Positions 1,627 through 61,163 of a stretch of DNA of 64,000 bases are shown here, in pieces (the stretch's first letter is position 1; every line of letters starts with the position of its first letter). The notes under the pieces are model-generated. The model was not told the DNA's origin. It saw only the letters and a list, made by a program, of their open reading frames with translations, and searched no databases. Location: the sequence record PZ171032.1; one strand, given 5' to 3'. The stretch is from a phage. The translations under genes and the position numbers were made by a program.

Positions 1627-2544
1627 ATGATGAAGTATTTTAATGCAGACGACCTGGTTGACAAAGGTCTTGTAACCAGCAGATATTACCCAGATCTTGG
1701 ATTAAAGATCTACAAATATGCCAGAAAAGTATTCTACAACAATTTATGGCATTTGTCTCCGCGTTTACTAGAGTGCCGAGGCATTGTTGTCGGTAATGAA
1801 GGAAATGTTGTGGCATGGCCCTTCACAAAAGTGTTTAATTTGGGAGAAAACTCCACCAACCTGCCTGACAATAAACTTGTGACGGCGGTAGAGAAAAAGA
1901 ACGGATTCCTTGGTGTGGTATCATCTCATAAAGGTGAACTATTGTTTTCAACAACCGGGTCTCTTGATTCTCCATATTGTAACCTTGCAAAGGAAACCAT
2001 CCAGGAGCAATGTGGTAATTTAGATCTTATCAAGAAGGTTATGGGCCATGAAAACATGACATTCATGTTTGAAATTTGTCACCCTTCAGATCCGCATATT
2101 GTTCAGGAAGATCATGGCGCATATTTGATAGGTTGCAGATATAATGATTCCGGAATAATGCTACCAGAAGCGGCTTTAGATGGGATTGCCAAATACCTTG
2201 GTGCAAAACGTCCTCACACTGTGCGTGAAATTCCGTTCAGTTATGCAAAAGAATTAGCTGCAGAAACAAGAGGTGAAGGGTATATGATTCGTAAGCCTTA
2301 CTACCCTTATGACCTGCAGCTGAAGATTAAGTCTCCATACTATCTGGCACGGAAGGCCGTAATGAGGGGTAAAGCTTGGAAGATTTGGGATGATGATATC
2401 TTTAAACGTATTGACGAAGAGTTTTATGGCATGGTAAACTTCATTCGTAGCAATTACACAGAAGATGTGTGGAACTGCCTCCTGGAGCAGGAACGCCGTG
2501 AGATACTTGATTACTATTTCCACAACGAGAACTATATGCAATGA
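1627..2544 (+). CDS. Rnl2-family RNA ligase (nucleotidyltransferase)
   Basis: EGYMIRKPYYPY and KIKSP match recalled T4 Rnl2 motifs IV (EGYVLKP) and V (KxK); candidate motif I KKNGF; motif III-like FMFE. Start set at ATGATG (1627) behind the same 17-nt initiation cassette used by the phosphatase gene. Confidence 0.55.
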   Translation: MMKYFNADDLVDKGLVTSRYYPDLGLKIYKYARKVFYNNLWHLSPRLLECRGIVVGNEGNVVAWPFTKVFNLGENSTNLPDNKLVTAVEKKNGFLGVVSSHKGELLFSTTGSLDSPYCNLAKETIQEQCGNLDLIKKVMGHENMTFMFEICHPSDPHIVQEDHGAYLIGCRYNDSGIMLPEAALDGIAKYLGAKRPHTVREIPFSYAKELAAETRGEGYMIRKPYYPYDLQLKIKSPYYLARKAVMRGKAWKIWDDDIFKRIDEEFYGMVNFIRSNYTEDVWNCLLEQERREILDYYFHNENYMQ

Positions 2545-2589
2545 AGAAGTGGAAAGTTATTTTTAATCACTCCAGCTTAAGGGGCCTGT

Positions 2590-3198
2590 ATGAAACTTGT
2601 ACATGGTGTTGGTGTTAATGATGCAGACTATCCTGTCAGGGTTTTAGACAAGGATACTGGAAAGAGAATCATGTGTCCTTTTTATATGACATGGTCAAAT
2701 ATGCTAGGAAGGTGCTACCTTAAAAACAAGAAATTTGAAGCTTATGCTATGGTAGAAGTCTGTGAAGAATGGAAAATCTTCAGCAACTTCAAGCGTTGGA
2801 TGGAAAAACAAGATTGGCAGGATAAATTTTTAGATAAAGATATCCTCTTTGAAAATAATCTTGTATACTGTCCAGAAGCGTGTATTTTTGTTCCCCGTGA
2901 AATAAACAACTTCTTTGTAGCAAGGATGCCACAAAGAGGGGAGTGTTTAATGGGAGTAAGAAGAAAAGGCCCATCTTTTGCTGCCTATTGCAAAGATGGG
3001 GTTAAGGACACGCAGGTTTATCTTGGAACCTTCCCCACGCAGATTGAGGCACATATGAGATACTTAGAATGTAAACTGCAACTTCTTAGAGATTTGATTA
3101 GAACTGTAGATGACAGTAGGTTGCTATTAGGATTACGAAGAATTGAAAATAAGATAGTTTTAGCTTTATCTTCAAAAACACCGATAGAGAATTTTTAG
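2590..3198 (+). CDS. homing-endonuclease-like DNA-binding protein with C-terminal AP2 domain
   Basis: C-terminal GVRRKGPSFAAYCKDGVKDTQVYLGTFPTQIEAHMRY fits the AP2 DNA-binding domain found in phage HNH/homing endonucleases; N-terminal YxxWxxMxxRC-type motif. No clear catalytic motif seen. Confidence 0.45.
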   Translation: MKLVHGVGVNDADYPVRVLDKDTGKRIMCPFYMTWSNMLGRCYLKNKKFEAYAMVEVCEEWKIFSNFKRWMEKQDWQDKFLDKDILFENNLVYCPEACIFVPREINNFFVARMPQRGECLMGVRRKGPSFAAYCKDGVKDTQVYLGTFPTQIEAHMRYLECKLQLLRDLIRTVDDSRLLLGLRRIENKIVLALSSKTPIENF

Positions 3199-3206
3199 AG
3201 GGATGT

Positions 3207-3554
3207 ATGAAAGTTTGGATAGATGATTTGCGTAACCCTGCTGACTACGGGCAGACAGATGCAATTTGGTTTAAAACTTCACAAGAGGCTATGGAGTTTC
3301 TCAATAATCCTGCTAAAATGTATCGAAGAGTGACAGAGTGGTTCTTTGACCATGATTTGGGTGAAGCCTCTGATCAAGACGGGTATGCTGTTTTATTGCG
3401 CCTGGAAGAGCTATTTGTATTTGGTAAGCCCCCTGTAGTTGACAACGTGAAGATTTTCGTGCATACTTCTAACCCATCAGCGGCTCGTAAATTCATGCTT
3501 GCAGCTGACTCGTTTAAAAAGTTTGGAATAGAGATTAAACAAAACATCTACTGA
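3207..3554 (+). CDS. small protein with receiver (CheY-like) fold signature; function unknown
   Basis: WIDDLR ... FDHDLGE ... VHTSNP places acidic residues where a receiver domain has its DD/D/T pocket. Pattern only. Confidence 0.3.
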   Translation: MKVWIDDLRNPADYGQTDAIWFKTSQEAMEFLNNPAKMYRRVTEWFFDHDLGEASDQDGYAVLLRLEELFVFGKPPVVDNVKIFVHTSNPSAARKFMLAADSFKKFGIEIKQNIY

Positions 3555-21731: not shown

Positions 21732-22010
21732 ATGAGCTGCGAAAAATCTTTTTTCATCATCATTTACGGTAAGGATAACTGCCCACATTGTGTCAGAGCA
21801 AAAGAATTTGCAATCAGCAAAGGTCTGCCTTTTGTATATAAGACACTTGGCGAGGGCTACACAAAAGAAGAGCTTATTGAGAAGTGCAGTCCAATTGTCC
21901 CCAGAACGTTGCCGCAGATCTTCTTAGAAAGCGATCTTGACAGTGTCCATATAGGCGGTGCCGACGATTTCATCTCTTTTGTTAAGAATGGTTTTGGAGA
22001 GAAAAAGTGA
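21732..22010 (+). CDS. glutaredoxin/thioredoxin-like redoxin (NrdH/NrdC-like)
   Basis: YGKDNCPHCVRAKEF CxxC active site; 92 aa; placed between RNR genes. Confidence 0.75.
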   Translation: MSCEKSFFIIIYGKDNCPHCVRAKEFAISKGLPFVYKTLGEGYTKEELIEKCSPIVPRTLPQIFLESDLDSVHIGGADDFISFVKNGFGEKK

Positions 22011-22867
22011 AAGTTGTAAAACGGGACGGTAGAGAAGAGTTCTATAACGGAATTAAGGTGATCAAGGCGGCAGAGTCCGCCTTACTTGAGTCTGGACATA
22101 CTGAAGAAGAAGCTTACCGGATCGCCTGCGCGGTTAATGAAGTTGTTGCTAACAATCTACCAACCGACCAGTGCACGATCTCTGTAAAAAATATCCATAT
22201 CCTTGTTGAAGATGCTCTTATGGATATGGGTTTAAAATGTGCAGCCAGAGAATACATCCAGTATAGACAGACAAGAGATAATAACAGAGAGGCAGGTGGA
22301 AAACTGCTTGCAGATATTAGTGGCTTCTTGGATCGAACTTGTGATGAATTTACAAAAGAAAACGCAAATAAGCCTACTAATCATGTACACACTCATCGCG
22401 ACCTGCTTGCAGGTATTCTTAGCAAACACCTTGCATCAACACAGATCCTGCCAGACCGTGTCTCCGAAGAGCACAATAAAGGATTCATCCATGTGCATGA
22501 TCTTGACTACTTGATCAGTCCGTTAACAAACTGTTGTTTGGTAAATTATCCAGATATGTTGGAAAACGGATTCAACATTGGTAACGCCCATGTCAGTAAG
22601 CCGAAGTCAATAGGGGTTGCAACAACAATCCTTAGCCAAATCTCTAGTGCGGTAGCTAGTGCTCAATATGGTGGTCAGACTATGAGCCATATTGATCATT
22701 ATCTGGCACAGTATGCTGAAGCGACCTATGAGAAGAACCTTAAATTTTGCCAGGAACATTGGTTGCCAGATGCTGAAACTGTTGCAATGCAAATGACAGA
22801 TAAAGACGTGTTTGACAGCATGCAGACGTTGCTTTATCAGATCAACACACTAACCTCGGTAAACGGT
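22007..22867 (+). CDS. nrdD: anaerobic ribonucleoside-triphosphate reductase, exon 1 of 3
   Basis: ATP-cone VVKRDGREEFYNG; sequence colinear with recalled T4 NrdD up to ...INTLTSVNG. Exon ends with U (GGT), followed by an in-frame TAA that opens the intron. Confidence 0.85.
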
Positions 22868-23124
22868 TAACAAACTGGCCGTTTTAAAACTCTGCTAACC
22901 TCAGTATGAGGGGTCAGCTGATCGCTGGCTAACGGGGAACGCTAAGGCGAAAGCTATGCCAATCCCGTGACTAGCTTCACAAGGAGTGAGGCGGTTGTAA
23001 CGACTAACCTTTTGGTGTAGGGATTATGGAAGATTCCGAAACGCAGGGGTCTGATTAATAATCACACGGTGTGATTTCAGGCAAGAGATAGTCTGGCCTT
23101 GTGGAAACATAAGGGTGGGGACCG
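22868..23124 (+). mobile_element. group I intron 1 in nrdD (257 nt, no ORF)
   Basis: Exon ends in U, intron ends in G. Internal guide GCCGUUU (22878-22884) pairs with the last 7 exon nt AAACGGU. R-like GTTGTAACGACTAAC and S-like AAGAGATAGTC core elements. Exon 2 reading frame resumes exactly as in T4 NrdD (NG|QTPF). Confidence 0.8.
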
Positions 23125-23424
23125 CAAACCCCTTTTATCACATTAAGTTTAGGTCTGGACACCTCAGTATTTGGTAGAATGATTACCAAAAACTACTTGA
23201 AAGTCCACAAAATGGGTCTTGGTGAAGAACGTATCACACCTGTGTTCCCTAAGGTGCTGTTCTTCCTGGAAGATGGTGTCAACATGAACCCTGGAGATCC
23301 TAACTATGATTTGAAACGATTAGCTCTGGAATGCTCTGCAGAGCGGATTTATCCTGACTTTGTTTCTGTTCCACTAAATCGTAAAGTGACAGGCTCGACA
23401 GATGGCAAAGTAACGAGCATGGGT
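23125..23424 (+). CDS. nrdD: anaerobic ribonucleoside-triphosphate reductase, exon 2 of 3
   Basis: Translation QTPFITLSLGLDTSVFGRMITKNYLKVHKMGLGEERITPVFPKVLFFLEDGVNMNPGDPNYDLKRLALECSAERIYPD... is colinear with the central part of T4 NrdD; the track ORF 23179..23433 is this exon. Confidence 0.8.
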
Positions 23425-24186
23425 AAACTATAACTGCTCATGTAAAATCTATCTAAACGGGGAAACTCCAGAACGGACAATCCCGTGCTAAACGTAACAG
23501 AACTCCTGACCAAGAGGAGTCCTGAAATGAGAAAACAAATTCGTGATTTTGAAGGTTATGAAATTGACGAGATGGGCAATGTTTATTGCACCCGCTACGA
23601 AAATGAAAGAATTATTCATTCGTGGGAAGAGATAAACACAGGTTACCGTCTTGTTAGGATACGCAAGAACAAAAAGACTGTTTGCCTAAGGGTTCACAGA
23701 CTTGTTGCTGAAGCGTTCTTACCAAATCCAGACAATTTACCCTATGTTAAGCACAAAGGGGACAACAGGAAAGATAACAGTGTGTACAACCTTGAGTGGG
23801 GAGCTTGCCCAGACAATACGCAAGAAGGATACAACAACAACTGTTATGCTTTTTACACAAGATGCCACGGTGTGAAAGCCACCAACAAATTAACTGGTGA
23901 GGTTTTCCACTTTAAAAGTCTGAGATGTTGTGCTGATGTTTTAGGAGTAGATAGAAAAAGAATATCTGCTATCCTGAAACGTGGTGCGCCTAATAACTAT
24001 GATTACGAGTTCTGTTACGAAATGCCTAACGACTAACCGTGATGAATGTAGCGGTGTAGGGTGTAAGCCGATGACACTCGAAATGGTAGACACACTAAGT
24101 GTGAAGATATAGTCTGATCTGCATGGGGACATGCAGCAGCACGTAAAGGTGCGGGGGTGGACTTGCGAACCACCCTGAACATAATG
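23425..24186 (+). mobile_element. group I intron 2 in nrdD (762 nt) carrying an HNH homing endonuclease ORF
   Basis: Exon 2 ends in U (ATG GGT), intron ends in G (..ACATAATG). Candidate guide GCUCAUG near the 5' end; S-like AAGATATAGTCTG near the 3' end. Exon 3 resumes at CRSFLS exactly as in T4 NrdD. Confidence 0.7.
23485..24036 (+). CDS. HNH homing endonuclease (intron-encoded)
   Basis: VHRLVAEAF...HKGDNRKDNSVYNLEW HNH_3-type motif; lies wholly inside intron 2. Confidence 0.75.
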   Translation: MLNVTELLTKRSPEMRKQIRDFEGYEIDEMGNVYCTRYENERIIHSWEEINTGYRLVRIRKNKKTVCLRVHRLVAEAFLPNPDNLPYVKHKGDNRKDNSVYNLEWGACPDNTQEGYNNNCYAFYTRCHGVKATNKLTGEVFHFKSLRCCADVLGVDRKRISAILKRGAPNNYDYEFCYEMPND

Positions 24187-25149
24187 TGTAGAAGTTTCTT
24201 ATCGAAATATAGCGACCCTGTAACAGGTGAGGAGAAATACCTTGGCAGATTTAACTTAGGCGTTGTTAGCCTTAACCTGCCAATGATTGCGGCAAAAGCT
24301 AAGATGGAAGGTGTTGATTTCTTTGCAGTTCTTGACGAATACTTGGATCTTGCATACGAGGCTCACCTTGTAAGGGTTAACCGTCTAAAAGGAACAAAGG
24401 CAGGGCAGAACCCCATCATGTGGTGTGAAGGCGCTCTTGCTCGCCTAGATCCTGAAGAAAGTATTGATAAACTCTTCTATGACGGGTACGCTTCCATCAG
24501 CATTGGGTACATTGGTGTGTATGAAACCTGTCAGATTTTGGGCAGAGAGGGTGACAAGGCTTTAGCTCTTGGAATCCTTCAGCACATGAGAGATGCTTGT
24601 GAGCGATACAAGAAGGAAAGTAGACTAGCATTTAGCTTGTACGGCACTCCTTCTGAGAGTCTATGCTATAAAGCTGCAACCTGTCTGGATCGTGAATATC
24701 CGGAAGTGTTGAAGCACGAGCATGAATATCTCACCAACAGTTTCCATCAGCCAGTGTGGATAAATAGCTCTCCTTTTGATAAGTGGGAGTATGAGGAAGG
24801 TTTTGCTATGATCTCCTCTGGTGGCAACATTGGATACGTAGAGACACCTAACCTGAAAAACAACCTGGATGCTTTAGAGGCTCTTGTTGACTTCGGGTAT
24901 AAACATATTATGTATTTTGGTATTAACCAACCTGTGGATAAATGTCTCAAGTGTGGTTTCTCTGGTGAGTTCAGTGCAACAGCTAAAGGGTTCTGCTGCC
25001 CTGCGTGCGGATGCCACGATGAACAATATATCTCAGTGATCCGAAGAGTGTCTGGATATCTTTCCAGTCCTAACTCCCGTCCTTACAATAAAGGTAAGCA
25101 AGCGGAAGTTATCGAGCGAGTTAAGCACTACGGAAGTTGTGGTTGCTGA
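24187..25149 (+). CDS. nrdD: anaerobic ribonucleoside-triphosphate reductase, exon 3 of 3 (glycyl-radical domain)
   Basis: C-terminal zinc site CLKCGF...CCPACGC and glycyl radical motif RRVSGYL; colinear with T4 NrdD C-terminus. Confidence 0.85.
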   Translation, partial: CRSFLSKYSDPVTGEEKYLGRFNLGVVSLNLPMIAAKAKMEGVDFFAVLDEYLDLAYEAHLVRVNRLKGTKAGQNPIMWCEGALARLDPEESIDKLFYDGYASISIGYIGVYETCQILGREGDKALALGILQHMRDACERYKKESRLAFSLYGTPSESLCYKAATCLDREYPEVLKHEHEYLTNSFHQPVWINSSPFDKWEYEEGFAMISSGGNIGYVETPNLKNNLDALEALVDFGYKHIMYFGINQPVDKCLKCGFSGEFSATAKGFCCPACGCHDEQYISVIRRVSGYLSSPNSRPYNKGKQAEVIERVKHYGSCGC

Positions 25150-25212: not shown

Positions 25213-25329
25213 ATGTCATCAGGTATTTATAAAATTTGCAAGTGCGGCTGTAGTTGTAATCTTCGTTGGTGCAAGGCACTAGACGATTTTATTTGGCATT
25301 GCCCTAAATGTGATGCGGAGTATCTATGA
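25213..25329 (+). CDS. small Cys-rich (zinc-ribbon-like) peptide, 38 aa
   Basis: AGGAGGTG SD 5 nt upstream of ATG; MSSGIYKICKCGCSCNLRWCKALDDFIWHCPKCDAEYL; stop overlaps nrdG start (ATGA). Below the track size cutoff. Confidence 0.45.
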   Translation: MSSGIYKICKCGCSCNLRWCKALDDFIWHCPKCDAEYL

Positions 25330-25799
25330 ACATTGCTGGATACACAGAAGTATCTTACACAGAAGGGCCAGGTATTAGAACTGCCTTGTGGGTATCTGGG
25401 TGCCCACACGCTTGCCCTGGTTGCTTTAATCAGGCATTTTGGTCAAAAGATAAGGGGAGGGAGTTCACTGAAGAAGATTTGCAAAAAATCTTGTCAGATC
25501 TGGATAACCCGTCTGTGTGCGGTATCTCTCTGCTGGGTGGAGAACCATTAGCATACTATAATGAGCCAGGTATTATTAGCCTGATGGAGAAAATTAAGGA
25601 AAAATTTGGTGACAAGAAAACTATTCTTGTATATACTGGGTTCACATTTGACCATATCTCTAGTGATGTTCTTAAACTGGCTGATATCATCATTGACGGT
25701 AAGTATGTAAAAGATTTACCAACCAAGAAACCGTTCCGAGGCAGTGATAACCAAAGAATGTTTAAAAAAGTATCAGGTGGTTGGGTTCAGGTAGACTAG
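25326..25799 (+). CDS. nrdG: anaerobic ribonucleotide reductase activating protein (radical SAM)
   Basis: CPHACPGCFN CxxxCxxC cluster motif; 157 aa; directly downstream of nrdD. Confidence 0.85.
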   Translation: MNIAGYTEVSYTEGPGIRTALWVSGCPHACPGCFNQAFWSKDKGREFTEEDLQKILSDLDNPSVCGISLLGGEPLAYYNEPGIISLMEKIKEKFGDKKTILVYTGFTFDHISSDVLKLADIIIDGKYVKDLPTKKPFRGSDNQRMFKKVSGGWVQVD

Positions 25800-57897: not shown

Positions 57898-58739
57898 CAA
57901 TAGTTCAGGTAGGTCGTTAAGCTACCCCGCACCATTACGTGCACAGCCATACAGTTTCCTGTATGGATCGGACTATCTCACTACCTTGTTACCAAGGCAC
58001 CTCCCATTTCGACCGCACTTGCTGGCCTACTCTACTCGCTTCTTCGCACCAATTTATGTTGGCGCTATGCTTTCGATAGTCTCTGAACGTTACTACCAGG
58101 TGTAGTTTTTAGAGATATGTTTCCACTGTCTTCTTTGCTTTATGGCTCTGACCGTCTCATAAGGATACCCAAGATCCCTAATCTCGCATTGTCGTAAACC
58201 ACTTTGTAACAGTTCGCAAATCTCCGTTACCTCATCCTCGGTCAGTACAGCGTTGGCATTATACTCACCGACTGGCCTTACTCTGAGGTCATTATCATAA
58301 GCGTGTTTGATATTTCCACCAGGGGTGGTCCATTCAAGGTTCCAGTATGCATTGTTGTATTTGTTTCCGTCCTTATGGTTCACCCATGTGAGCCTTTCAG
58401 GATCAGGGTTTGATACAAAGCATTCAGCAACCAAGTGGTGGACACCTTTTGTGCACTGCTTCCCCTCGATGAACATGGTTACGCAAAGGTAACCTCGACC
58501 ATTATCAAAACAGAACATTGTTGTATGATCACGTTTCGATAAAGGTATTGTTCCATCATCAAACACGGTATATCCGTGATAATCAACTGATCTAGCCATT
58601 TTAACTACACCCCTTTAGTCTTCGCTGCGGATTAGCATATTGAGCTTTTACCATGTTTAGGTGTAAAAGTCAACTTAGCCTTCCCGTCAATTAAAGAGGT
58701 TTTCGACGTGCATCACTGCACGAAGCCACAATGTTATTT
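57898..58739 (-). mobile_element. group I intron in the DNA polymerase gene (842 nt) carrying an HNH homing endonuclease ORF
   Basis: Exon 1 ends in U (CAT), intron ends in G (..TTG). Minus-strand R-like GTTCAGAGACTATCG directly after the HNH stop and S-like AGATAGTCC core elements. Frame and motif C are restored across the junction. Confidence 0.75.
58093..58599 (-). CDS. HNH homing endonuclease (intron-encoded)
   Basis: VHHLVAECF...VNHKDGNKYNNAYWNLEW HNH_3-type motif; AAAGGGGTG SD. Confidence 0.75.
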   Translation of the reverse strand: MARSVDYHGYTVFDDGTIPLSKRDHTTMFCFDNGRGYLCVTMFIEGKQCTKGVHHLVAECFVSNPDPERLTWVNHKDGNKYNNAYWNLEWTTPGGNIKHAYDNDLRVRPVGEYNANAVLTEDEVTEICELLQSGLRQCEIRDLGYPYETVRAIKQRRQWKHISKNYTW

Positions 58740-61163
58740 ATGGTAATAGATAATACGACGAACACCTTCATCGTACCACCCACGCTTCACCATTTGGTGG
58801 TGCATAAGTATCCCAACTAAGTCACACAGCGATGCACCACCATTCTGTTGGTATGCATTAAGTAAAGAGTGTTTAGATCGGGTCCAGATGGCATGACCAT
58901 CAAAAGAGTAGATAAACTTCTTACCCGTTGCTTCCCAGAATTTCTCCAGATCCTCTTTACGCCCCTTAAGACCAGGGTTGGCATCCCAAAGTGCATCGAT
59001 CACCCTTTGTCCCAACTCTGGAGAGATGTCCAGCATATCTGCAACTTTATCTTTTTGTGCCCCGTACATAACCCCATACGTGATAGGTTTACCGTCGTTA
59101 CGAGACACCTCTCTGCCTGCTACTTTTGTATATGCCTCAGCATTGTTTTGGTGTGCGTCCCCGTTACTTACAACATCATAATACAAGCCGTTGTCGAACT
59201 CAAAGGCACCCCAAGCCCCGATAAGCTGCTCTAAGTTGGACCCGTCAATACCGATCTCAAAGTATCCTGGAGGAACACCCCACAGACTACGCATCTCTTT
59301 ACCCATAACCACTTTAGGAGATGGTTTAGGCATGTTTGCACAAATACTGTGTTTCTGTCTGGAAGTGTTTGTTAATCCAGAGCTTTTAGCAGGAAGCTTA
59401 TGGTCAATCTTCAAACGTGGGTGATTAAGAAGACCAGTATCAACCTTATCCTCCTTAATTGGATCAAGGACCGATCTGCGGTTTCGCAATGATAACCACA
59501 AGACGATATCTTTAGCCATCTCTCCGTTCAATTTTTCAAGATTCGGACATAGGTGTCCAAACGTATCTTTCAGTTGCGGAGAAGTAATAAGTGCTCTGGC
59601 TTTTCTACGTATTTTCCCGAATACTTCCTTTTTAATCCTTTCGGAGTTAGGAAAGCTTCGGAACTTGTGCACGGTTGTCTGGAACTTAGCATCAGTTTTG
59701 TTCCAGAAGTTGATAATCAGGTCACAATACTCTGACTCTAAAAGCTCGTCCATATATGCATATACTCGTGCATCAACATCTGCATCAGGTAGAGCTTTCT
59801 TCTTGCTGTCTTTAGTTACATCCTTAGTTCTCCACATTGTCGGAAGCCAACCAGCACTGATCAGGTATCGCTTAATATCGTCCTGATTGCTGATTTTCAT
59901 AGGTATCTTGCAGTCAGGCATTCGCTTCTGCTGCAGATCGCTTATTGCCTGATCCATCAGCTCTTTAGGTAAAGGTTGTGGTGTGGAGGTGCCCTTAATA
60001 TAACCTCTCAAGAAATCAGCCATCTTGTCTGGGTCTTTGCAGCCCATCTCTTCACACCATTTTATCCCCATTTTACTGACATCTCCTGTGGAGGTAAATG
60101 CTCGCTTAGGTGGGGCTTTGAACTCTAAAGCGCTCATGTCTACAGGATAGCCAAGCTTATCTTTTAACCATTTCCAACCATTATTGGAGATTGTCCCATC
60201 TTGGTTAAACGGCTTTTCAGGGAACTTGGGCCGCTGAGACATTGACAGCTCTTTTAAAGGTAGTTGTGGTTCAACACGATCAGCTATTTCTTTCATCCAC
60301 GCATCGCAACGGTCACGTAAAGCAATAGCCCCGTCTATGTCGAAATACACACCCTGACGGGCCTGCAGCTCCATCAGGAAGTGCTGCAGCATGCCTCGGC
60401 GTAATGCGTTCTTCCAGGTGATCTTCTTGAACCCTTTTGGCTTCTCTTTGGCAGGATCGTACATAAAGTTCTGCATGTCAGATTTGCCGTAGAATACACC
60501 TTTTGATTCCGCTACCAGCTCTTTCCAGAGCAGCTCCTGGATGATAACGTCCTCGAATACACGATCCACATACTTCCACAGCGGAAGATCGCGCCAGTCA
60601 TCAATTTGAACTTTCTGGTTACCAAGAGCGTAGCCCCATGCCATAAGGCCGTGAGGACCAACAGGCTGCATTTTCTTAGTAACCGGGTTGAATACAGAGT
60701 CCGGACAACCTTTTGGTAAAGGGCGATCAGGCCACAAGATTCGGCTCATCGCCAACGTATCGAACAGGTTAACCTGGTGGTCGTTGATAGTCCCCATACA
60801 TTTAGGATCACGGAACATATCAAAATGAATACCGGATAATCTCTCCATCAGCATAAAGTCATAACTGTAGCAGTTATGGCAGTTCAAAGCTGTTGGTGAC
60901 CAGTCGGAATTTCCTGTAAGCCAACCTTCCAACTCCGAAAAATCTGCTATGCGAACTTCAAAATCTTTATAAAGAGTTTTCTTTGCCAGAATAAAGTTCT
61001 TAGCCTTCTCTATATCCTCCTCGGAGTAGTGTGTGCGGTCATTTAGAGGAAGGAACAGCATAAAACGGTTCTTATTCAGCTCTTTAAACAGGCCGCAATG
61101 ATAATAAAGATCTGGGTCTTCCAGCAAACCGGATGACTCAAAATCGAACGACCACATGCTCAT
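58740..61163 (-). CDS. DNA polymerase (family A, T7 gp5-like), exon 1 of 2
   Basis: 3'-5' exo motif FDFESSG; LMAWGYALGN, GIDGSNLEQL (motif A), KPITYGVMYGAQ (motif B) colinear with recalled T7 gp5; track ORF stops just before motif C. Confidence 0.85.

Follow-up and report, generated by a model that had tools for sequence, protein, structure and literature searches.

Among the closest described counterparts of the locus studied here are those in phages T4 and Twort. The nrdD (sunY) intron of T4 is self-splicing and mobile, and the T4 introns are textbook cases (PMC2988022). In Staphylococcus phage Twort, a large-subunit gene of ribonucleotide reductase (RNR), nrdE, is interrupted close to conserved catalytic residues by two group I introns, one of them with an HNH gene, and split phage RNR genes, nrdD included, form a recognised class (PMC3653736). 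We analyzed nrdD in a 64,000-nucleotide (nt) stretch of phage DNA (sequence record PZ171032.1; the whole stretch is called the window below), which comes from a Vequintavirus, an rV5-like coliphage. In this phage nrdD is, we conclude with high confidence, a split gene with two mobile group I introns, termed intron 1 and intron 2. The arrangement differs from that of Twort in that nrdE is a class Ib gene of a Gram-positive phage, and in that splicing was shown by experiment there and is predicted from sequence here. T4 has a single nrdD intron, as an earlier reading of the window (the original prediction) had stated; it is delimited here as 1033 nt (positions 2417..3449 of the T4 locus, L005).

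The split nrdD gene and its predicted product

The original prediction held that three open reading frames (ORFs; 22007..22870, 23179..23433 and 24157..25149) are parts of one continuous NrdD that is spliced from 22867 to 23125 and from 23424 to 24187. These coordinates proved exact: joining 22007..22867, 23125..23424 and 24187..25149 gives 2124 nt, in frame, which encode 707 amino acids (aa) plus a stop codon. Both junctions can be fixed to a single base because some close relatives are without one insert or both. Phage phiWec191 lacks exactly 22868..23124 and reads ...GTCAACGGG followed by CAAACCCC... (22867 directly onto 23125), HeinrichReichert lacks exactly 23425..24186 and reads ...AGCATGGGT followed by TGCCGGAG... 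(23424 directly onto 24187), and in rV5 and Murica, which have neither insert, nrdD is continuous over 2124 nt. Precise removal of both inserts, 257 nt for intron 1 and 762 nt for intron 2, restores the nrdD frame and leaves a coding sequence (CDS) that is colinear with, and equal in length to, those of rV5 and Murica. The end rules of group I introns (exon U, intron G), which the prediction had invoked, hold at both junctions: exon 1 ends in ...AAACGGT and exon 2 in ...CATGGGT, each with a terminal U in the RNA, while the introns terminate in ...GGGGACCG and ...ACATAATG, each with G as the last base.

The sequence around the 5' junctions also bears on the idea that the inserts are inteins, which would be translated and then removed from the protein. 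Inteins are known in phage RNR genes (PMC3653736), but the frame of exon 1 meets a TAA at 22868-70 and that of exon 2 one at 23431-33, and because these stop codons come directly after both 5' junctions the intein reading is refuted. In addition, there is no long ORF in intron 1, and the HNH ORF of intron 2 has its own start and stop codons and no match to an intein family. The probability that we leave to inteins is vanishingly small.

The predicted spliced product has the features of a class III ribonucleotide reductase, namely a full-length NRDD domain, a glycyl-radical motif, a catalytic Cys and C-terminal Zn-ribbon cysteines. Pfam NRDD gives one continuous match that begins at aa 118 and covers model positions 1-562 of 562 (E 2e-159), and Pfam Gly_radical matches aa 580-682 (E 2.5e-24). 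The protein is 45% identical to spliced T4 NrdD (605 aa); Cys388 (MGCRSF) is aligned with T4 Cys290, and RRVSGYL with T4 RRTCGYL. The match to Murica is gap-free, with 702/708 residues identical. The alignment to NrdD references that had been proposed as a check thus bears out the predicted 707-aa product, colinear and with its glycyl-radical domain. With regard to the amino terminus, nrdD begins 213 nt further downstream in the BASEL records than in those of rV5 and Murica, whose GTG is also used here, so that window positions 22007..22219 are left out; the upstream GTG is supported because the Pfam ATP-cone match covers aa 2-91.

For the region 22007..25149 there are 299 matching phage records, with Vequintavirus coliphages as the best at 94-98% identity. 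The gene order around the locus is nrdA, nrdB, glutaredoxin, nrdD, nrdG and phoH, with nrdG at 25326..25799, downstream of nrdD. The exons, the introns and their structural elements are listed in Table 1.

Table 1. Positions of the nrdD exons, the two introns, their helices (P) and joining segments (J), and the HNH gene in the window
Feature	Position	Strand	Remarks
nrdD exon 1	22007..22867	+	aa 1-287; GTG start overlapping glutaredoxin stop; ATP-cone; colinear with intron-less nrdD of Murica and rV5
nrdD exon 2	23125..23424	+	aa 288-387, QTPFITLSLG...TSMG; lacks its own start codon at the junction
nrdD exon 3	24187..25149	+	aa 388-707; catalytic Cys is the first codon; Zn-ribbon cysteines; RRVSGYL glycyl-radical motif
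Intron 1, group I, ORF-less, 257 nt	22868..23124	+	begins UAAC...; omega-G 23124; absent from phiWec191; RF00028 30.2 bits
Intron 1 P1	22861..22884	+	exon AAACGGU (22861-67) with guide GCCGUUU (22878-84); U22867-G22878 is the splice-site wobble
Intron 1 core, P3	22890..23048	+	CUCUGC (22890-95) with GCAGGG (23043-48)
Intron 1 extra hairpins	22899-22911; 22913-22929	+	between P3 and P4
Intron 1 P4, P5, P6	P4 22932-37 with 22963-68; P5 22941-59; P6 22974-92	+	
Intron 1 J6/7 and P7 5' strand; P7.1; P7.2	22993-23006; 23007-16; 23020-37	+	
Intron 1 3' part	23050..23124	+	P8 23050-81; J8/7 and P7 3' strand (CAAGAGAUAGUC) 23082-93
Intron 1 P9	23097-23114	+	GAAA loop; then tail to omega-G 23124
Intron 2, group I, T4 nrdD (sunY) lineage, 762 nt	23425..24186	+	P7.1/P7.2, P9.1/P9.2; omega-G 24186; absent from HeinrichReichert
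Intron 2 5' half, with P1	23418..23505	+	P1 is exon CAUGGGU (23418-24) with guide GCUCAUG (23436-42), 7 bp
Intron 2 P10 5' strand CUAUA	23428-32	+	can pair with exon 3 UGUAG 24187-91
Intron 2 P3 5' strand; P4; P5; P6 5' strand	23448-53; 23457-62 with 23481-86; 23467-77; 23493-23505	+	
HNH homing-endonuclease gene (putative), I-HmuI type, 169 aa	23527..24036	+	in P6 loop of intron 2; ATG to TAA
Intron 2 3' half	24007..24186	+	P6 3' strand 24007-19; J6/7 and P7 5' strand 24020-35
Intron 2 P7.1; P7.2; P3 3' strand; P8	24036-55; 24059-79; 24085-90; 24091-24103	+	
Intron 2 J8/7 and P7 3' strand; P9; P9.1; P9.2	24104-14; 24119-36; 24139-52; 24155-75	+	
Intron 2 tail	24176-86	+	UGAACAUAAUG

Predicted ribozyme folds of the two introns

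Both inserts display the hallmarks of group I introns. Each has a 7-bp P1 that is formed with an internal guide and has a U-G pair at its end, each terminates in omega-G at a position fixed by the intron-less alleles (G23124 and G24186), and each contains the conserved core, comprising the P3/P7 pseudoknot, P4-P6, P8, P9 and the J8/7-P7 segment, with support from covariation that is weaker for intron 1, as it comes from two variants only. The P1 proposed earlier for intron 1 and the conserved J8/7-P7 elements were recovered, and the description of intron 1 as ORF-less and of intron 2 as a 762-nt element with an HNH gene stands.

The Rfam scan suggested as a check on both introns gave a divided answer. 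At the gathering threshold, which is 50 bits for the group I intron model RF00028, the scan found no match anywhere in the window. In a permissive scan RF00028 matches both inserts on the + strand, intron 1 with 30.2 bits (E 2.4e-5 on the 1.7-kb region and 9e-4 on the whole window) and intron 2 with 33.2 bits (E 2.9e-6 and 1e-4, respectively); the model was therefore found in both introns, but under its gathering score. The T4 nrdD intron scores 105.3 bits. The low score of intron 2, where the model aligns with the 3' half only, is explained by the ORF of about 500 nt that sits inside P6. In phage AMO3598, a relative of intron 2 that has lost most of the ORF and shares about 90% identity in the ribozyme reaches 70.4 bits, over the gathering threshold. 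Among the relatives of intron 1, the ORF-less intron of HeinrichReichert scores 29.8 bits and the ORF-containing variant of EmilHeitz 27.1 bits.

Folded without constraints, intron 1 has a minimum free energy of -88.3 kcal/mol (z = -4.0), and P3, P4-P6, P7.1, P7.2, P8 and P9 are all recovered. Every helix forms both in the window and in the EmilHeitz variant, and several differ by compensatory changes. In the P1 of EmilHeitz, exon CAACGGU pairs with guide GCCGUUG, so that an A-U pair of the window is replaced by C-G through one exon base and one guide base; its P3, CUCUCC with GGAGAG, shows a G-C to C-G swap; and P9 is CCUUGUG/CAUAAGG in the window and CCCUGUG/CACAGGG in EmilHeitz. Hairpin B and P6 also show compensatory changes. 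We prefer CUCUGC/GCAGGG as the P3 of intron 1 because it pairs at 6/6 positions and shows the G-C to C-G swap; the P3 given by Rfam (the 3' half of hairpin B) was rejected, as this segment is a hairpin with compensatory changes in EmilHeitz.

The two hairpins at 22899..22929, between the 5' strand of P3 and J3/4-P4, occupy a non-standard place for peripheral helices in group I introns. Both are kept in the EmilHeitz variant, again with compensatory changes, and are the probable reason why intron 1 scores low with Rfam.

The ribozyme of intron 2 is, by alignment and predicted fold, a homolog of the T4 nrdD (sunY) intron. BLAST aligns the two cores at 80% identity over 113 nt. With the ORFs excised, we aligned the ribozymes of five members (window intron 2, Phapecoctavirus nepoznato, Vibrio phage F96, Felixounavirus Alf5 and T4) and tested covariation over 48 pairs in P1, P3, P4, P7, P7.1, P7.2, P9 and P9.2. 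In this alignment 97.9% of cells are paired and 17 of the 48 pairs show changes on both sides, whereas controls in which the 3' partners were slid by 1-3 columns gave 35-46% paired and at most 3 pairs changed on both sides, and none of 500 shuffles reached the observed values. P5, P6, P8 and P9.1 were kept out of the test because MAFFT misaligned their length-variable loops; checked by hand, they are present in every member, so that all 12 helices form in 5/5. The exon and the guide also covary at the intron 2 site, being GAUGGGU/GCUCAUC in Alf5. The Rfam label 'P1' for 24036-55 was rejected, since comparison with T4 identifies this helix as P7.1.

These folds bear on two further explanations of the locus. 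Many GenBank records annotate separate nrdD_1, nrdD_2 and nrdD_3 CDSs, as would suit a gene in pieces, in which the inserts stay in the RNA and three separately translated NrdD polypeptides assemble. The model for such a gene is phage Aeh1, whose NrdA is split by the mobE endonuclease gene. In the window, an in-frame ATG (23179) lies in exon 2 and an in-frame GTG (24157) is available for exon 3, and functional split RNR genes are known in phages (PMC3653736). However, a start at ATG 23179 loses 18 codons (QTPFITLSLGLDTSVFGR) whose conservation extends to T4, intron 1 contains no ORF, and both inserts keep a covarying ribozyme fold that a free-standing endonuclease cassette would not need. The junctions, moreover, lie exactly where the P1 and omega-G rules predict them, with the frame exactly restored. 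A gene in pieces is, in our judgement, highly improbable.

The other explanation is a decaying gene, in which the ribozymes of the inserted mobile elements no longer splice and the exons are pseudogene fragments. The endonuclease gene of intron 1 is lost or was never present, the Rfam scores are sub-threshold, and nrdD is missing from some related genera, where it is dispensable (PMC7344957), all of which would fit such decay. Against it, the codon differences from the intron-less nrdD of Murica comprise 53 synonymous and 6 non-synonymous changes, a ratio of about 9:1 found across all three exons, and there are no frameshifts or stops. This synonymous excess indicates a working nrdD gene under purifying selection. 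In addition, the core helices of both introns are all intact, the identical arrangement persists in several independent isolates, and the ORF in P6 accounts for the score of intron 2. We therefore consider decay very unlikely and retain the reading of nrdD as a working gene with two group I introns.

The HNH gene, the T4 lineage and proposed intron mobility

The HNH gene of intron 2 most likely starts at ATG 23527. This start is preferred to GTG 23485, which was rejected, because it has a ribosome-binding site (GAGGAG, 8 nt upstream, inside a hairpin at 23502-23520), because the alignment with I-HmuI begins at residue 3, and because the relatives annotate a 510-nt CDS. The protein matches PHROG 59 (HNH endonuclease; E 2.8e-32) and is colinear with I-HmuI, the 174-aa endonuclease of the DNA polymerase intron of Bacillus phage SPO1 (PDB 1U3E), over residues 3-166 of 169 (E 1.8e-7). 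The alignment suggests the I-HmuI-like layout of an N-terminal NUMOD4-like strand, an HNH motif and a C-terminal helix-turn-helix region, and H76, N88 and N97 are invariant among 6 homologs. The two proteins differ in their low sequence identity, in the target gene and host, and in the residue before the catalytic His, which is Asp in I-HmuI. The endonuclease activity of the intron 2 protein is thus putative.

The gene and the ribozyme overlap at both ends of the P6 insertion. The final ten or so HNH codons (YEFCYEMPND) and the stop codon double as the 3' strand of P6, J6/7 and the 5' strand of P7 (24007..24036). The hairpin with the Shine-Dalgarno sequence (23502..23520) overlaps the end of the P6 5' strand and has a covarying counterpart in nepoznato. 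By analogy with the T4 introns, this hairpin may restrain translation of the HNH gene.

The homology of intron 2 to the T4 nrdD intron, which lies in the same host gene, extends over the whole length of the ribozyme (P1, P3-P9, P7.1/P7.2 and P9.1/P9.2). The two have an identical guide, GCUCAUG, and an identical 3' tail, UGAACA..UG; the guide pairs with exon CAUGGGU in the window and with UAUGAGU in T4. Their positions in the gene are different. The T4 intron splits codon Y180 (EY/EV, the slash marking the insertion point), which is aligned with Y277 of the window, and neither window intron is at this site. Intron 1 lies between G287 and Q288 (T4 G190 and Q191), 32 nt downstream of the T4 site, and intron 2 lies between G387 and C388 (T4 G289 and C290), directly before the catalytic Cys codon and 110 codons downstream of the T4 site. 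The endonuclease cargo differs as well: T4 has the GIY-YIG-type I-TevII in the loop of P9.1, 3' of the core, whereas in intron 2 an I-HmuI-type HNH gene is in the loop of P6 and P9.1 is a 14-nt hairpin. BLAST of intron 1 against the T4 nrdD intron gave no match, the similarity being that of the generic core.

The same T4-type ribozyme thus occupies two nrdD sites in different phage groups, one after UAUGAGU in T4 and one after (C/U)AUGGGU at the catalytic Cys, and GCUCAUG pairs with both. It is possible, though we hold it only tentatively, that this reflects ectopic transposition by reverse splicing guided by P1 complementarity, followed by exchange of endonuclease cassettes (GIY-YIG in P9.1 versus HNH in P6). 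Alternatively, endonuclease-driven homing may account for everything. As a separate observation, intron 2 positions 677-760 (window 24101..24184, the end from P7 to P9.2) resemble short stretches of many unrelated phages at 75-83% identity, including phiKZ-like Pseudomonas, Xanthomonas and Aeromonas phages, and also match the terminase large-subunit gene of the Vequintaviruses RudolfGeigy and rV5_ev158, a gene for which introns were reported in rV5 (PMC3606486).

In the mechanism that we propose, each intron would adopt the group I core on the primary transcript, with P3 and P7 as a pseudoknot, P4-P6, P8, P9, and a P1 whose U-G pair marks the 5' splice site. Splicing would begin when an external guanosine attacks behind U22867 and behind U23424; the 3'-OH released on the exon would in turn attack behind the terminal G (23124 and 24186), and the three exons would be ligated into one mRNA for the 707-aa class III ribonucleotide reductase. 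The Cys388 codon would meet that of Gly387 only through the removal of intron 2. In a mixed infection, the I-HmuI-type HNH endonuclease would cut or nick an intron-less nrdD, and recombinational repair would transfer the intron to the recipient together with adjoining exon sequence, a process of homing with co-conversion. Intron 1 is without an endonuclease gene, and its spread would require either flanking homologous recombination or an endonuclease acting in trans, a possible source of which is the HNH-bearing sibling variant in other Vequintaviruses.

The exons beside the insertion sites carry dense, mostly synonymous changes. At junction 1, 15 differences fall in spliced positions 804-873 and are common to the two intron-1-plus alleles; at junction 2, 17 differences fall in positions 1164-1215, directly downstream, and are common to the two intron-2-plus alleles. 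The tracts cover the P1 bases of intron 1 (GUAAACGGU versus GUCAACGGG) and the possible P10 of intron 2 (UGUAG versus UGCCG). Such tracts are consistent with the pattern expected of co-conversion during homing, and a co-converted tract would shield the allele from its own endonuclease. For site-specific cutting or nicking of the intron-less allele by the HNH protein, the tract next to junction 2 is indirect evidence.

Several points weigh against reading the locus as two active, mobile group I introns. Splicing of both is a prediction from canonical group I chemistry. The RF00028 scores of both introns are under the gathering threshold, the pair of hairpins between P3 and P4 of intron 1 is atypical, covariation support for this intron is thin, with two diverged variants only, and the helices that were compared with EmilHeitz for intron 1 and across five members for intron 2 were chosen by hand. 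For the HNH protein, Pfam HNH_3 (19.7 bits; cut-off 24.8) and a NUMOD-like domain (20.2 bits; cut-off 27) are both sub-threshold, and Lys precedes the catalytic His, where I-HmuI and the other homologs have Asp or Asn.

Distribution, annotation and significance

The two-intron nrdD is a real but ordinary case of mobile introns, and related phages carry any combination or none. Of 121 Vequintavirus records, a spread sample of 60 was compared, in which the nrdD locus spans 2124, 2381, 2886, 2921, 3143 or 3683 nt, which correspond, in this order, to no intron, intron 1, intron 2, an ORF-bearing intron 1, both introns, and an ORF-bearing intron 1 plus intron 2. These six configurations occur among alleles that are at least 91% identical, and about half of the sampled records have an intron-less nrdD. 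The combination seen in the window is also found in phages navn, 241Ecol014PP, A135 and A147.

By BLAST, intron 1 is found in 42 Vequintavirus records only, 14 of them ORF-less and 28 ORF-bearing; beyond Vequintavirus, the single BLAST hit covers 50 nt of P4-P5 in Bacillus phage S4-2. A pattern scan of IMG/VR viral contigs returned one 137-kb contig with intron 1, which added no new relatives. The ORF-bearing form (EmilHeitz, FFH2, FV3, slur16 and JEP1) has the same insertion site as the intron 1 of the window, 86.7% identity to it over the first 141 nt, and the same P1-P7 and P9 architecture, down to the pair of hairpins that separates P3 from P4. It differs in being 797 nt long with a 177-aa HNH ORF in the loop of P8, in a P7.1-P8 segment that is not BLAST-alignable with that of the window, and in flanking exon sequence that is nearer to the intron-less alleles.

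Introns at the MG/CR site occupied by intron 2 are found in nrdD of other phage lineages: Phapecoctavirus nepoznato, AMO3598 (unclassified in its record), Felixounavirus Alf5 and UAB_Phi87, and Vibrio phage F96. Like intron 2, they are inserted right before the catalytic Cys codon, and their ribozymes and HNH proteins are homologous to those of intron 2, the HNH protein being 91% identical to that of the window in nepoznato and 51% in F96 and Alf5; the HNH stop codon lies within P7 also in nepoznato and F96. The lengths of P5, P6 and P8 vary, and AMO3598 has lost most of the ORF, its 290-nt ORF-less derivative still containing the first and last bits of the HNH frame. The nrdD of F96 (OZ196197.1) has two HNH-bearing inserts, at QYG/GQT and MG/CR. 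In F96, Alf5 and AMO3598, nrdD is annotated as gene fragments.

With regard to earlier descriptions, nrdD of Felix O1-like phages was published as "interrupted by a homing endonuclease", with no mention of an intron (PMC4837284, PMC3728262), and the rV5 genome paper reports introns in the terminase gene (TerL) only (PMC3606486), the nrdD of rV5 itself being intact. The BASEL GenBank records annotate nrdD as a joined CDS, with intron boundaries set by comparative genomics (PMC8594841, methods). The two-intron nrdD is therefore already partly annotated in GenBank and is not unique. Our literature search found no paper describing Vequintavirus nrdD introns.

Elsewhere in the window, the DNA polymerase (PolA-type) gene is interrupted by a third group I intron candidate at 57948..58749 on the minus strand (RF00028 39.9 bits, E 2.9e-8 on 1.7 kb), with a 168-aa HNH ORF (58599..58093) in P6 and the DNA polymerase ORF at 61163..58734. 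This element is present or absent in relatives, where the stretch matching a 2001-nt query measures 2001, about 1435 or about 1159 nt, and there is an apparent ORF-less form. In addition, some 20 GenBank 'Campylobacter phage' records (MG0656xx; A135, A147, C2, A142 and others) are 94-98% identical to the nrdD and DNA polymerase regions of the window, which suggests that these 'Campylobacter jejuni phage' records represent mislabelled hosts or contaminant phages.

The practical value of these results is in annotation. They provide exact nrdD joins for dozens of Vequintavirus, Phapecoctavirus and Felixounavirus records, in which nrdD appears as two or three fragments alongside a "hypothetical protein" or "endonuclease", and the same logic extends to the DNA polymerase gene of the window. 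The biological value is modest, and nothing here is unexpected for specialists in phage introns. Phage nrdD contains at least three separate group I insertion sites, grouped at conserved catalytic segments, and a T4-type ribozyme is common to distant phage families with differing endonuclease cargo. Close coliphages that are able to co-infect one host carry all on/off combinations of the introns, and are therefore a convenient system, provided by nature, in which to study homing, co-conversion and what becomes of an ORF-less intron beside an ORF-bearing sibling.

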